Shown here piece after piece: positions 16,124 through 28,802 of a stretch of DNA of 64,000 bases. Position 1 is the first letter of the stretch. Each line of letters starts with the position of its first letter. The notes beneath the pieces were generated by a model that had not been told where the DNA came from, made no database searches, and was given only the letters and a program-made list of their open reading frames with translations. Source of the DNA: Candidatus Bipolaricaulota bacterium (GTDB taxonomy: Bacteria; Bipolaricaulota; Bipolaricaulia; UBA7950; UBA9294); NCBI GenBank assembly GCA_040752575.1, contig JBFMGK010000003.1, forward strand, positions 1-64,000, in the 5' to 3' direction. Made by a program: the position numbers and the translations under genes.

Positions 16124-19100
16124 TCATGCCACCCACCCCTCCGAAAGAGCCTCGGCCTGTTCGAGAACGGTCTCGGTCGCCTTGGCCTGCTTGTCCGGCG
16201 GGTAGCCGTACTTGCGCAGGATGCGTTTGACGAGCACGCGTAGCTGAGCGCGAACGTTCTCGCGCACGGTCCAGTCGATCTTGACGTTCTTCCGCACGGT
16301 GTCGGCCAGCTCGCGCGCGATGGTCCGCAGGGTCTCGTCGCCGAGCACCTTCACGGCGCTGTCGTTCGTCTCGAGCGCGTCGTAGAAGGCGACTTCGTCG
16401 TCGCTGAGCTTCAGCCTCTCGCCCCGCGTGTCGGCCTGGCGGATGTCTTTCGCGAGACCGATCAGCTCTTCGATGACCTCCACGGTCTCGATCGCGCGGT
16501 TCTGGTACTTGCGGATCGACTGTTCGAGCAGCTCGGCGAACGACCGCGCCTGCACGACGTTTCGCTTCGAGCGTGTCTTGATCTCGCCCGCGAGGAGCTT
16601 GCGCAGAAGCTCGACGGCGAGGTTCTTCTGCGGCATGCCGCGCACCTCGGCAAGGAATTGCTCGGAGAGAATCGAGATGTCGGGTTTCTTGAGACCTGCG
16701 GCGGCAAACAGGTCGACCACGTCGTCGGAGACGATGGCGCCGGAGATGATCTGCCGGATGGCGTGGTCGAGTTCCTCGTCGGTCTTGCGATCGACGGTTG
16801 CGCCCTTGGCGAGCACGGCGCGCACGGCCTGGAAGAAGCCGACGTCGTCGCGAATCGCGAGCGCCTGCTCGTGCGGCACGGCCAGAGCGAACGCCTGCGA
16901 TAGCTCAGTCACGGCGCGCAGCCAGCGTGCTTTTCCGTCCGCCTGCGCCAGGATGTGCTCCTGTGCCAGAGGCAGGAGCGCGAGCTTCTCCTGTGGCGTT
17001 CCGCTCACCCACTTCGCCCAGTTGAAGCCCGGAACGACGCCTGCTGGCGTCGGAAACTGAGCAAGGAGGCCGCGGCAGATCTCGTACTTCTCGAGGATCA
17101 GCGAGACGGCCTCGGCTTGGTCGATCGCTGTCTCTCCCGTCCCGCCGCTCTCGGTGTAGGTCGCAAGCGCGCGGCGCAGCTCGTCGGCGAGGCCGAGGTA
17201 GTCGACCACCAGACCGCCGGGCTTGTCGCCGAACACGCGGTTCACGCGCGCGATCGCCTGCATCAGGCCGTGCCCGCGCATTGGCTTGTCGACGTACATC
17301 GTGTGCAGGCTCGGCGCATCGAACCCGGTGAGCCACGTGTCGCGAACGATCACGACACGGAACGGATCGGCCGGATCGCGGAAACGCGCCGCCAGAACCT
17401 CGCGCTTCGGCTTATTGCGGATGTGCGGCTGCCAATCGAGCGAGTCGCTCGCCGAGCCGGTCATCACGACCTTCATCGACCCGTGCTCGTCGTCCGCGCC
17501 ATGCCATTGCGGCCGCAGCGCGGCGATCTCGCGGTACAGCTCGACGCAGATGCGGCGGCTCATGCAGACAATCATCGCCTTGCCTTGCATCGCTGCGAGC
17601 CGCTTCTCGTAGTGATCGACGATGTCGCGCGCGATGACCTTCACGCGCTGCGGCGAGCCGACGACGGCTTCGAGCTGGGCCCACTTCGTCTTGAGCTTCT
17701 CCTTGCGCTCGACCTCTTCGCCTTCGGTCGCCTCGTCGAAGTCGAGGTCGATCTTCGGCTTGTCGGCTTCGGCAAGGGCGAGCTTCGCGAGGCGGCTCTC
17801 GTAGTAGATGGGCACCGTCGCCCCGTCAGCGACCGCGCGCTGGATGTCGTAGACGCTGATGTAGTCGCCGAACACGGCGCGCGTGTTCTTGTCGGTCAGA
17901 TCGATCGGGGTTCCGGTGAACCCGATGAACGACGCGTTGGGCAACGCGTCGCGCATGTGGCGAGCGTACCCGTCGATGAAGTCATACTGGCTACGGTGTG
18001 CCTCGTCGGCTAGGACCACGATGTTCCGTCGGTCTGAGAGTACCGCGTGCTGGTCGCCGCCCGGCTCAGGAAAGAACTTCTGGATCGTGGTGAAGACCAC
18101 CCCGCCGCCCTCGGTGCGGAGCTTCGCGCGAAGATCGGCCCGGTCCTGGGCCTGCTCCGGCGCCCAGCCGACCACTTCGCGACAGCGCGAGAACGTGCCG
18201 AAGAGCTGATCGTCGAGATCGTTGCGGTCCGTGATGACGACGATCGTCGGATTCGCCATCGCCGGCTCAAGGATGATCCGTCCGGCGTAGAACGCCATCG
18301 TCAGGCTCTTACCCGAGCCCTGCGTGTGCCAGATGACGCCGACCCTGCGATCGCCGGGATCACCGCCCGGGCGGAGGCCTGCCTCGTAGCGCCCAGGCAC
18401 GTAGGCCGTTCGATCGTCCGGCACCTGCCGCGTCGCGCGCAGCGTCTCCTCCACCGCGGCGTTCACGGCGTGGAACTGGTGGTAGCCGGCCATCTTCTTG
18501 CTCGCAATGCCCGCAGCATTGCCGTCCTCGAAGACCACGAAGTGGCGAACCAGGTCGAGAAGACGCCGCTTGTCGAAGACGCCGCGCAGCAGGACCTCGA
18601 GCTCTGTCAGGCGTGCGCTCGCGTCCTCCTTCCCCTCGATCGTGCGCCACGGCTTGAACCACTCCCGCCCCGCACCCAGAGCGCCAATCCGCGCCAGCGT
18701 CCCGTCCGAGACGACAAGCGCCTCGTTGTAGGCAAGGAGCGCGGGGATCTCCGCCTGGTAGGTCTGGAGCTGCTTGTACGCCGTCCACACCGTCGCGTTC
18801 TCGTCGGCCGGGTTTTTGAGCTCAATGACCGCGAGCGGCAGGCCGTTCACGAACAAGACGATGTCTGGCCGCCGCGTGTGCTGGCCTTCGGCAACCGTGA
18901 ACTGGTTCACCGCCAGCCAACCGTTGTTGTTGGGGTCCTCGAAGTCGAGGACGCGAGCCTGATCGCCCGCAATCGGTCCATCTGGGCGCCGGTACTCCAC
19001 CGGGACACCCTTCACGAGCATGCGGTGCACGACGCGGTTGCGCTCAATCAACGAGGGCGCATCGACGCGCGTCAGCTTCCGGAAGGTGTCTTCGAGCGCT

Positions 19101-19303
19101 TCGGGCGGAAGCTGCGGATTGAGCTTCACGAGCGCATCGCGGAGGCGGCACTCCAGGACCACATCGCGGAAGCTGGGATAACTTCGCTCGGCATTGAGTT
19201 CTCCGGCCGCGATGGCGGGCCCGTAGAGCACTGCATAGCCAAGCTCTTCGAGCCAGGCGAGGGCAGCGTCTTCTACGACAGATTCCGTAAAGGCCCTAGC
19301 CAT
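16124..19303 (-). CDS. hsdR: Type I restriction endonuclease subunit R
   Basis: [20 protein letters not shown] nuclease motif, [36 protein letters not shown]. Confidence 0.97.
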
Positions 19304-26754: not shown

Positions 26755-28802
26755 CGGCCGTCCTCCCAGAATCCCAGTACCTTGAGGTTCTTGGTGATGG
26801 CCTCGTCGAGCGTCTTTGCCTCTGCCTGCTGCTCGCGGAGCGTCGCGGTGAACTTCTTCATCTTCTCGTCAAACGGCTCGCCGTCGTCCTCTGCAGCCTC
26901 GGCGCCAACGTAGCGGCCAGGCGTGAGAACGTAGCCGTGCGCGCGAACCTCGTCGAGCGTGGCGCTCTTGCAGAAACCGGCGACATCGGCGTACTCGCCG
27001 GCGCCTTCGTCGCCACGCCAGGCGTGGTACGTGCCGGCGATCGTAGCGGCATCCTCGTCGGTCAGCTCGAGGTGAGTGCGATCGACCATAGTGCCAAGCT
27101 TGCGGGCGTCGATGAACAGCGTCTCCCCCCTTCTGTCGCGGAGACGCCCCTCACCCCCTGCCCCTCTCCCAGAGGTAGAGGGGATATGCAGCGCTTCGCT
27201 CGCACCGTCACCCGCGGCTCTCCCAGAGGGAGAGGCGCCGACAGCTTCTGCGATCTCGCGCAACGTCTCTTCGGTTCGGTCGAGCAACCGCTCGTTCGGG
27301 ATCCGCAGCACTGTCAAGCCCAACGCCTTGATGTATGCATCGCGCTTGTGGTCCACTTGCTGCCGCGCAGTGGTGTCGTGAATCGGTCCATCAAGCTCCA
27401 GAACCAGCTTCTTCTCGTCGCAGTAGAAGTCGACAACGTAGTCCCCGATCTGATGCTGGCGCCTGAACTTGAGTCCGAGAAAGCGACGGTCGCGCAGTAG
27501 TTCCCATGCGAAGGCTTCAGCAGGTGTCGCCCGCTGACGCAGTTCACGCGCCACTTCCAGTTGTCCGGAGAAGTCGTAACCTCCGCGGTAATGCCCCTCT
27601 CCCGCTGGGAGAGGGCCGCCCGACGAGCGGGGTGAGGGTTGCCCGCGCTTGTCGCGGGCAATGAACCACAGGCAGACGGGGATCTGGGTCGAGAAGAAGA
27701 GCTGGCCGGGCAGCGCAACCATGCAATCGACAAGGTCGGCCTCGATCATCGCCCTGCGGATCTCGCCTTCGCCAGACTGATTCGACGACATCGAGCCGTT
27801 GGCGAGAACGAACCCGGCGATGCCGTTCGGCGCGAGGTGCGAGACAAAGTGCTGCACCCAGGCGAAGTTGGCGTTTCCCGCTGGCGGGGTCCCGTAGACC
27901 CAGCGCTTGTCGTCCTTCAGGAGCTCGCCGCGCCAGTCGCTGTCGTTGAATGGGGGATTGGCGAGCACGTAGTCGGCCTTGAGGTCGGGGTGCTTGTCGT
28001 TATGAAAGGTGTCGCCGTGCGCGATCTGCGCGTCGATGCCGCGGAGGGCGAGGTTCATCTTGGCAAGGCGCCAGGTGGTGTAGTTCGACTCCTGGCCGTA
28101 GATCGAGATGTCGCCAATCTTGCCGGCGTGCGCTTCGATGAACTTCTCGCTCTGCACGAACATGCCGCCCGAGCCGCAGCAAGGGTCGTAGACGCGGCCC
28201 TTGTACGGCGCGAGCATCGCAACGAGGACACGGACGACGTGCGACGGAGTGTAGAACTGGCCGCCCTTCTTGCCCTCGGCGCTCGCGAACTGGGCGAGGA
28301 AGTACTCGTACACCTGGCCCAGGATGTCCTTGGCGCGGTCGGCGGGTGAGCCGAGGCCGATGTCGGAGACGAGGTTGATGAGCTGGCCCAGGCGCTCCTT
28401 GTCGAGACCGGGGCGCGCGTAGTCCTTGGGGAGCACGCCCTTGAGCGTCGGGTTGTCGCGCTCGATCGCCTCCATGGCGTCATCGACGGTCTTGCCGAGC
28501 GTCGGCTGCGGCGCGTTGGCTTTGAGGAGCGACCAGCGTGCTTCCTTCGGGACCCAGAAGATGTTCACCGCGCGATACTCGTCGGGATCCTCCGGGTCGG
28601 CGCCCTGCTTGCGCTCAGCGTCCAACTGGGCGTATTTCGCCTCGAACGCGTCGGAGATGTACTTGAGGAAGATGAGGCCGAGGACGACGTGCTTGTACTC
28701 TGCCGCGTCCATGTTCGCACGCAGCGCGTCGGCCGCGGCCCAAAGCATGGCCTTCAGGTCAGGGGAGCCGGTTGTTGCCGCGTTCTTCGCTCGTCTTGCC
28801 AT
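26751..28802 (-). CDS. hsdM: Type I restriction-modification methyltransferase subunit M with in-frame DUF559 insertion
   Basis: [50 protein letters not shown]. Start trimmed to MARRAK. Confidence 0.96.
27148..27638 (-). mobile_element. Putative non-IS mobile element: DUF559 endonuclease flanked by inverted palindromic repeats
   Basis: Perfect terminal IR CCCTCACCCC (27148-27157) / GGGGTGAGGG (27629-27638), each next to a CCCTCTCCC..GAGGG hairpin. Encodes ARELR..TPAE..W..LR..KFRRQH...VDFYC...ELDG..H...D..RD...VLR. Confidence 0.75.

Follow-up and report, generated by a model that had tools for sequence, protein, structure and literature searches.

Defence genes that lie within restriction operons have been a rich source of new anti-phage systems, and their embedding in type I restriction-modification (R-M) operons has already been published. 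A 'guilt-by-embedding' survey describes genes that sit inside Hma, BREX, DISARM and type I R-M systems (Payne et al., bioRxiv 10.1101/2024.01.29.577857), TgvAB is embedded in the type I cluster of Vibrio VPI-2 (PMC11411939), and the PrrC anticodon nuclease is embedded in the EcoprrI type IC R-M locus (PMC12707154). A case of the same phenomenon is present in the window, by which we mean the whole analysed stretch of 64,000 nt (positions 1 to 64,000, forward strand, of contig JBFMGK010000003.1) from the Candidatus Bipolaricaulota bacterium assembly GCA_040752575.1 (2.16 Mb, 78 contigs, estimated to be ~ 95% complete). Judged from its sequence, the region 16124–28802 is a complete type I R-M gene cluster with cargo genes, putatively co-transcribed. 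Apparently new here is the embedding in type I or Hma systems of two families for which no described defence role was found in the searched literature, namely a dual-specificity-type phosphatase (hereafter PTP) and a RibD-like deaminase fused to GHKL and winged helix-turn-helix (wHTH) domains (hereafter DEAM). We regard it as reasonably probable that the cluster belongs to a lineage of type I systems carrying exchangeable defence genes, in which PTP is a resident and the cargo acts independently as layered protection.

Seven long open reading frames (ORFs), all co-directional on the minus strand, occupy positions 16124–29036 (ORF list, Pfam and PADLOC). They are listed below from hsdM to hsdR, followed by two smaller features.

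26751–28802, minus strand: hsdM, type I methyltransferase subunit (Pfam HsdM_N and N6_Mtase, E 6.5e-105; PADLOC MTase_I, 698.7 bits)
24967–26754, minus strand: Schlafen/AlbA_2 + GHKL (HATPase_c_4) + wHTH protein of the 'Schlatpase' type (Pfam SLFN_AlbA_2, E 2.2e-10; HATPase_c_4, E 5.2e-16)
23425–24732, minus strand: hsdS, specificity subunit with two target-recognition halves (PADLOC Specificity_I over residues 1–424, E 1.3e-120; Pfam Methylase_S)
21713–23428, minus strand: OLD-family ABC ATPase-TOPRIM nuclease (PADLOC Old, E 2.8e-53; Pfam AAA_15, AAA_21 and OLD-like_TOPRIM)
21128–21613, minus strand: PTP, 161-aa dual-specificity-type phosphatase (Pfam DSPc, E 7.6e-9; motif HCNQGESR)
19493–20989, minus strand: DEAM, RibD-like zinc deaminase (residues 1 to ~ 165) + linker + GHKL HATPase_c_4 + wHTH (Pfam dCMP_cyt_deam_1, HATPase_c_4 and HTH)
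16124–19303, minus strand: hsdR, restriction/translocase subunit (Pfam HSDR_N, SWI2_SNF2, ResIII, T1R_D3-like and T1RH-like_C; PADLOC REase_I, 1084.5 bits)
27184–27590, minus strand: DUF559 in-frame insertion in hsdM (Pfam DUF559, E 4.4e-32)
24735–24830, minus strand: relic of the hsdM 3' end, 96 nt, directly upstream of hsdS (repeat search, family D1, 80% identity to 26773–26868)

Catalytic motifs were intact in every enzyme of the cluster, including NPPF and DPCCGSG in HsdM and DEAH and GSGKS in HsdR. HsdM, HsdS and HsdR, the last with its nuclease, helicase motor and C-terminal domains, together place the predicted system in type I. Four-nucleotide overlaps join the hsdM stop to the start of the Schlafen-GHKL gene and the hsdS stop to the start of the OLD gene, and the remaining intergenic gaps measure 99–234 nt. 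The hsdM frame stays open to 29036, with a start at Met79 (28802) favoured by homologues and blastn; its orthologues in related loci share 84–93% identity. A previous sequence-only reading of the window, made by a model without database searches, had named these seven genes as one co-directional series, and all of them were recovered in place. Its view of the extra genes as defence-type cargo carried by a type I cluster was likewise supported; relatives of the cargo do co-occur with defence loci (PTP with type I genes in 62 of 79 loci, DEAM in both type I and Hma systems), and its multi-layer defence reading of the cluster is plausible. The PADLOC scan that it had suggested matched the R-M subunits and OLD; PTP found no match, and DEAM matched only prokaryotic Argonaute (pAgo)-associated models outside its deaminase.

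The surroundings of PTP were analysed in metagenome contigs by tblastn with the window proteins, clustering, and Pfam searches on 80 representatives of 202 unmatched ORFs. At least 569 relatives were confirmed among 592 pattern matches, and the best 80 that were kept correspond to 79 loci with PTP identities of 53–89%. Type I genes lay on the same strand in 62 of these loci: 51 have hsdM or hsdS upstream, 42 have hsdR or a 5' piece of it downstream, and 31 have both. Of the 17 loci that lack type I genes, 14 are no longer than 4.2 kb. Gene order was constant, running hsdM, cargo, hsdS, cargo, PTP, cargo, hsdR. The cargo itself comprised SIR2 + HerA, AbiJ, Abi_2, TIR, SLATT with a ThsB-like TIR, DUF3800, DUF3644, DUF6119 and Mrr; AAA_15/21 with or without DUF4276, SMC-like ATPases, OLD, Schlafen-GHKL, DUF4062-GHKL-HTH and reverse transcriptase; and Fic, RhuM, YhcG, a Cap15-like receptor, an SDH protease and many proteins without a family. 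The gene following PTP was DEAM in 20 loci, DUF3800 in seven, SLATT in six, AbiJ and DUF3644 in five each, and one of 16 other kinds elsewhere, the contig ending there in 12. Directly before PTP stood hsdS in 16 of the 79 loci and OLD in only four.

A genome of the same genus (G117) has the same backbone, with HsdR at 83%, PTP at 84% and HsdM at 92% identity, the last lacking DUF559. Its cargo differs (YhcG/PDC-S02, PDC-M02B and Mrr/PDC-S02), and its flanks do not align with the window. Across 21 loci, pairwise PTP identities correlated with those of HsdR (Spearman 0.59) and HsdM (0.60), values that were reached in none of 2000 permutations; for HsdM versus HsdR the coefficient was 0.73 (11 loci). 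Among 184 genomes of the phylum, PTP matches were present in six and HsdR of the window's family in 21, and on these counts we rejected PTP as a core R-M subunit. One operon without PTP (L112) still has 2.5 kb and 4.4 kb of cargo. By these genomic comparisons PTP is a stable resident that is inherited with the R-M backbone and optional within the backbone family, while the other genes are shuffled.

The sequence-only reading had seen the cargo as guard or back-up effectors. In such an arrangement, HsdMSR would hold the cargo inactive, as it does PrrC, and release it when a phage protein such as Ocr, ArdA or Stp blocks restriction. PrrC of EcoprrI sits in the same kind of position and works by such release (PMC12707154), and Payne et al. 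discuss ABC-ATPase defence proteins that are activated by phage anti-defence proteins, with RecBCD inhibitors in the case of OLD (bioRxiv 10.1101/2024.01.29.577857). The closest PTP relatives, too, are almost confined to type I operons (62/79) and co-diverge with HsdR and HsdM, as a physically coupled partner would. However, DEAM was separate from type I genes in 18 of its 20 genome loci, Schlafen-GHKL proteins are reported beside BREX, BR systems and many other settings, the same slots hold stand-alone systems such as SIR2-HerA and AbiJ, and no cargo protein matched the PrrC model of PADLOC. Because the same families occur outside type I operons, the idea is weakened for DEAM, OLD and the Schlafen protein, and we hold it to be unlikely. 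PrrC and the closest PTP relatives are alike in being non-R-M genes inside type I operons and almost wholly confined there; PrrC, however, is an ABC-ATPase tRNA nuclease and PTP a predicted cysteine phosphatase, and coupling to the R-M complex is known for PrrC only.

Relics of backbone and cargo genes were found at the cargo borders. A 96-nt direct repeat of the hsdM 3' end (24735–24830 and 26773–26868, 80% identical), supported by alignment with the hsdM-hsdS junction of locus L034, places a second copy upstream of hsdS, so the Schlafen-GHKL gene lies between two direct-repeat copies, of which the downstream one retains a stop codon of its own immediately ahead of hsdS. In L021–L023, L025, L027 and L108, and in G117, a fragment of the hsdR 5' end lies directly upstream of PTP, and in L021, L023 and L024, where other cargo has replaced DEAM, a DEAM 5' stub of ~ 140–200 nt persists after PTP. 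We infer that this is the pattern expected if cargo enters via recombination on conserved backbone stretches.

Locus L021 also has two PTP copies within 7001–9443, 89% and 86% identical to that of the window. A short DEAM 5' remnant comes after each copy, and beyond it the cargo differs: the first copy leads on to Mrr_cat, the second to an unnamed 189-aa protein.

More than 3000 homologues of DEAM were found, and the best 120 of them share 66–85% identity. Its residues 1 to ~ 160 match RibD deaminase domains (PDB 2b3z, E 1.2e-12; root-mean-square deviation 3.0 Å over 153 columns) and carry the motifs HAE at 61 and PCx11C, PCAPGSRHEPKLGC, at 87; HAE, PC and C were invariant in 34 aligned relatives. 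The hallmarks of the RibD-like clade given in PMC3239186, HxE and PC...C with an insert holding a His, are present in DEAM, and its best PDB and NCBIfam matches are RibD. As a RibD riboflavin enzyme it was rejected, since it has no reductase domain, its C-terminal part is GHKL + wHTH, and TIGR00326 scored 56 bits against a cut-off of 156. Foldseek aligned the N-terminal part of the model, which is of moderate quality for the whole protein (predicted local distance difference test, pLDDT, 75), with RibD/RibG, and the C-terminal part with 3LMM as the best structural match. The latter (DIP2311) we take to be a protein of the AlbA_2-HATPase_c_4 kind, and the Pfam DIP2311-like_C model matched some DEAM relatives. 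Against PADLOC-DB 2.0.0 only two pAgo-associated models matched, at residues 136–356, outside the deaminase core.

With its GHKL + wHTH part DEAM resembles Schlafen-GHKL proteins, a RibD-like deaminase standing in place of the Schlafen nuclease; as GHKL is present and SLFN absent, it is not a 'Schlatpase' member. A search with its C-terminal 329 residues returned 130 representatives (50% identity clusters) at E ≤ 1e-30. We scanned 52 of the 150 listed matches, those of at least 469 aa with a match starting after about residue 150; of these full-length representatives nearest to the DEAM C-terminal part 51 carried the deaminase, and one has an Rce1-like domain. A recent domain swap from a Schlafen-GHKL protein was rejected on this ground, and DEAM therefore appears to be an old sister family of the Schlafen-GHKL proteins, in a separate, deep clade with at least 51 clusters at 50% identity.

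Neighbourhoods of DEAM were compared in 20 genome loci, Pfam being run on 81 ORFs that leave out the DEAM genes and loci L001, L013, L015 and L019. Neither PTP nor OLD accompanied DEAM in 19 of the 20, and hsdR adjoined it in two: L001 (OLD-PTP-DEAM-hsdR) and L020 (PDC-S06 (AAA_13)-DEAM-hsdR). In L008 it is flanked on either side by an HmaB methylase gene, within an Hma system (matches to HmaA, HmaB twice and HmaC); L013 and L015 have the same ORF layout, Hma models having been matched on L008 only. The remaining loci have it next to a TOTE primase-helicase, to a type IV-like helicase-nuclease or to integrases, or in unremarkable surroundings. On this genomic distribution, DEAM is a large, unnamed, embedding-prone and apparently autonomous family.

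A DEAM homologue of 55% identity in a Myxococcales metagenome-assembled genome (MAG; L006, 10001–11470) has one in-frame stop and adjoins a gene for an NAD-dependent DNA ligase that is apparently split; the homologue may be a pseudogene or an artefact of assembly.

The adjacency of PTP and DEAM could instead reflect a two-gene module, in which the deaminase would act on a 5'-phosphorylated pyrimidine-type substrate and PTP would process the product or keep the deaminase off. DEAM is the commonest gene after PTP (20 of 67 loci having a next gene), its best PDB matches are RibD-type deaminases, and its 5' relics remain after PTP where it was replaced, so the PTP-DEAM order looks ancestral in the clade of at least 80% identity. 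RibD-type deaminases use phosphorylated substrates. Yet PTP was without DEAM in 59 of the 79 loci and was never followed by it in the deeper PTP branches (53–61% identity), DEAM lacked PTP in all but one of its genome loci, and none was found near phage PTP relatives. We consider such a module improbable.

That OLD, PTP and DEAM would form one not-yet-named three-gene defence system is barely credible. The series OLD-PTP-DEAM was seen with hsdR on a single MAG contig (L001 = L103, 78–89% protein identity) and in L068 with a distant OLD (25% identity), which amounts to two of ~ 100 loci examined, one of them a near copy of the window operon. Where OLD precedes PTP, a gene other than DEAM came next in three of the four loci. 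As a fixed system the combination was rejected on the variable neighbourhoods of PTP and DEAM, and the joint occurrence of OLD, phosphatase and deaminase-ATPase in the sequence-only reading did not hold up as a conserved system.

PTP has 1692 homologues of ~ 160 aa, and in their alignment H103, C104, R110 and D71, the last being the presumed general acid, are invariant, and so are two other motifs, HACKEPYHR and GAPKxHPEY, in which basic and aromatic residues abound. The AlphaFold2 model (pLDDT 91.5) found its best Foldseek matches in the catalytic domains of DUSP16 and DUSP10, which are of the mitogen-activated protein kinase phosphatase type (template modelling score 0.66–0.71, probability 1.00, ~ 20% identity); profile matches to the same proteins reached E 7e-8, and Pfam added a weak Rit1 DUSP-like match (E 6.7e-4). 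An HCX5R P-loop on this modelled fold predicts a cysteine-based dual-specificity phosphatase. By default we read it as a protein phosphatase, a polyanionic substrate being the alternative. Searched against PADLOC-DB 2.0.0, it matched no family at E ≤ 0.01.

Clusters nearest to PTP in the ESM Atlas lie among phage proteins. Relatives were identified by tblastn in four isolated phages (Vibrio phages 1.077.O, 1.070.O and VpV262 and Tunturiibacter phage Tunturi_3; 37–43% identity), and 41 of 42 IMG/VR loci with a PTP relative (28–58% identity) were without type I genes. PHROGs annotation of 87 of 174 ORFs identified terminase, portal, helicase, primase, ribonucleotide reductase, dUTPase, RNase H and resolvase as neighbours; DEAM was not found near the PTP relatives of these IMG/VR loci. 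A quick maximum-likelihood tree (109 distinct rows, unrooted) contained one clade of 49 rows made up of 38 type I rows, 11 short-contig rows and no phage rows. The remaining type I rows were mixed with a phage-dominated clade, and the deepest branches were mostly phage.

In Vibrio phage 1.077.O (L160) a metallo-dependent phosphatase-like protein, an HAD acid phosphatase and the dual-specificity phosphatase homologue are encoded within ~ 2.7 kb (2828–5477). Two small hypothetical genes separate the first two, and a PIN-like gene lies upstream. The trio may be an end-processing or nucleotide-handling module.

Such relatives bear on whether the cargo, and PTP above all, has a defence role, for it might be a selfish or phage-derived passenger, an addiction module stabilising the operon, or a regulator of host physiology. 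The family is common in real phages beside terminase and replication genes, type I PTP clades nest among phage-dominated tree branches, and the operon also bears the evidently mobile DUF559 insertion described below. On the other hand, the type I PTP clade is short-branched with invariant catalytic and other motifs, pointing to long-term purifying selection in the type I setting, and the neighbours of PTP are overwhelmingly defence families. A non-defence role is, on balance, highly improbable.

The two further cargo genes of the window belong to families with described defence roles. The Schlafen-GHKL gene (24967–26754) combines SLFN/AlbA_2 with a following PF13749 GHKL domain and thus has the architecture of a 'Schlatpase', the same as that of the Schlafen-HK-wHTH back-up effectors of BREX. 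An orthologue of 85% identity occupies the same operon position in L021. The GHKL domain's binding of ATP is described as driving an oligomerisation that assembles the active Schlafen nuclease (bioRxiv 10.64898/2026.05.29.728809), and a back-up effector role in BREX-type systems is ascribed to Schlafen-HK-wHTH and OLD proteins (PMC12839542); OLD and Schlafen-GHKL proteins are also presented as back-up effectors in bioRxiv 10.1101/2024.01.29.577857. The OLD protein of the window has a Walker A motif GANDSGKS together with LLLFEEPE, LIVEGPTE and DDD, as expected of an OLD-family ATPase with a TOPRIM domain. It shares the ABC ATPase + TOPRIM organisation and intact motifs with P2 Old, GajA and AriA; Old was its best PADLOC model, and weak PDB matches were to GajA and 6P74. 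P2 Old belongs to class 1 of the OLD family. No helicase or AriB domain was found in the gene cluster, the neighbours of OLD being hsdS and PTP; with neither a GajB-type helicase nor a separate AriB beside it, the gene is part of neither Gabija nor PARIS.

Under the favoured explanation, that of a type I lineage with exchangeable and independently acting defence cargo, the lineage would offer two slots, hsdM-to-hsdS and hsdS-to-hsdR, which in the window would hold three self-contained single-gene modules (the Schlafen-GHKL-wHTH protein, a solitary OLD and DEAM) plus PTP. Restriction would hit unmodified DNA, and the cargo proteins would serve as independent second-line effectors or as effectors for other targets. 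After ATP-driven oligomerisation, tRNA or another RNA would probably be cut by the Schlafen protein, and OLD probably cuts DNA. By analogy with Schlafen-GHKL proteins, DEAM is probably an ATP-switched effector, whose deaminase would convert a pyrimidine nucleotide or related phosphorylated substrate and so poison or deplete a pool on which the phage depends. For PTP the most likely activity is protein dephosphorylation, and as its target we would favour either part of the restriction complex or a cargo or phage protein that becomes phosphorylated in infection; a nucleotide or nucleic-acid end is the alternative substrate. Gain and loss of cargo would proceed through recombination on the hsdM 3' end, the hsdR 5' end and PTP. 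The functions given for all genes in the cluster are predictions.

Several points weigh against this explanation. PTP is steadily inherited with the backbone and often adjoins DEAM, which could point to coupling with the R-M complex or with DEAM instead of action on its own, and its phage relatives could mean a non-defence or even a counter-defence role. Its structural neighbours are eukaryotic protein phosphatases at only ~ 20% identity, by which the substrate is not fixed, and for the DEAM deaminase the closest relatives of solved structure work in riboflavin synthesis rather than in defence. Furthermore, the loci are related to one another, so that the counts and the Mantel test (the permuted correlations above) overstate independence and are descriptive only, and the locus sample was drawn via PTP from its closest relatives, so that it gives no estimate of the share of operons with cargo.

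A bolder proposal, which we rate as quite unlikely, takes PTP as a new resident of the type I lineage and has host and phage copies contest the same phosphorylation mark, with the backbone stubs as homology arms of a cassette platform. The host PTP would strip phosphate placed by phage kinases on the restriction complex or back-up effectors, or would act on nucleic-acid ends, and the phage copies would work the opposite way against host defences. As arms would serve PTP itself together with the 3' end of hsdM and the 5' end of hsdR, and the operon lineage would be a platform on which recombination drives the exchange of defence-gene cassettes.

The hsdM gene carries an insertion of its own. 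DUF559, a Vsr-like endonuclease domain, corresponds to residues 494–598 of the hsdM ORF; the sequence-only reading had been right about its presence, and its apparent fusion to the protein gave way to an internal position, as a hairpin-bounded in-frame insertion absent from most orthologues. Palindromes of the form CCCTCTCCC-N3-GGGAGAGGG bound the insert at 27157–27181, 27211–27235 and 27590–27614, and the hsdM orthologues in L034, L029, L033 and L108 join straight across the stretch. The window's own genome has a single DUF559 copy and a single hairpin of this type.

A ~ 0.4-kb DUF559 unit with 21-nt palindromes on both sides was observed in frame in three different R-M subunits: in hsdM (window 27157–27614; L021 800–1500), in the central conserved region of hsdS (L045 2319–2721, L049 965–1415, L069 906–1308 and L075 1760–2162), and just ahead of the hsdR DEAH box (L039 9823–10233, L047 9620–10030 and L048 10973–11383). 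The host frame stays open across the unit in the window and in all seven hsdS and hsdR loci, and the flanking hairpins translate to Pro/Gly-rich linkers. By its sequence features, the unit looks like a mobile in-frame nuclease-domain element.

Other described systems share single features with the cluster. Among the neighbours found here, PDC-S02, PDC-S06, PDC-M02B and HmaABC are guilt-by-embedding candidates. PADLOC-DB 2.0.0, which holds such candidates, gave no match to PTP and none to DEAM through its deaminase, although the supplementary tables of the survey could list either family. PglZ is a phosphatase-fold fixed part of the methylation-based BREX defence with no known target (PMC12707154); its fold is that of alkaline phosphatase and it is essential to BREX, whereas PTP has a predicted cysteine-phosphatase fold and is optional in its R-M lineage (six versus 21 of 184 genomes). 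As in DEAM, dCTP deaminase/AvcD proteins join a zinc deaminase (dCMP/RibD/TadA division) to an NTP-binding domain in defence loci. The partner domain of the AvcD type is P-loop kinase-like; DEAM differs in having a deaminase of the RibD-like clade and a GHKL + wHTH partner. We propose, by analogy, that DEAM spoils the nucleotide pool with a logic like that of dCTP deaminase/AvcD.

Word searches of the open-access literature, which cannot prove absence, found among the matches listed no description of a dual-specificity or tyrosine phosphatase in restriction or defence, nor of a deaminase-GHKL(-wHTH) protein. The word 'deaminase' is absent from the accessible parts of the Schlafen defence preprint (10.1101/2025.07.24.666596) and of the guilt-by-embedding preprint (bioRxiv 10.1101/2024.01.29.577857). 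PTP (~ 1,700 homologues) and DEAM (> 3,000) are widespread, highly conserved families without a family of their own in PADLOC-DB 2.0.0. If DEAM is a working effector, the Schlafen-GHKL logic would be extended by a deaminase arm. Should PTP target the restriction complex or phosphorylation made by phages, it would represent a hardly studied regulatory layer of type I restriction, and phage carriage of the family would then make the conflict two-sided. The relic backbone stubs hint at a simple route of cargo swapping.

As to the surroundings, the flanks of the cluster are ordinary (nucleoside hydrolase, radical-SAM protein and TldD/PmbA), and G+C content drops from ~ 0.66 to ~ 0.60 over OLD and hsdS. 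No integrase was detected among 15 flanking ORFs (Pfam scan), no tRNA gene lies near the cluster (the nearest is at 44580), and no Rfam family reached its gathering score within 15500–30500. A scan for promoter-like (1 versus 1.6 expected) and terminator-like sites (11 versus 6.8 ± 2.2) did not rise above shuffled sequence. No curated NCBIfam family exceeded its cut-off for PTP, DEAM, the Schlafen-GHKL protein or hsdS. Four DNA runs yielded only short, fragmentary contigs. Stretches almost identical to parts of the Schlafen-GHKL gene and to the hsdS start turned up in three of the runs, and DEAM and DUF559 pieces in the fourth; some joints skip the DUF559 stretch. Next to the cluster, an ORF at 29035–30087 (plus strand) encodes 350 aa with a hydrophobic start and no Pfam match, and one at 30256–30789 (minus strand) encodes a 177-aa protein rich in Met, Gly and Arg.

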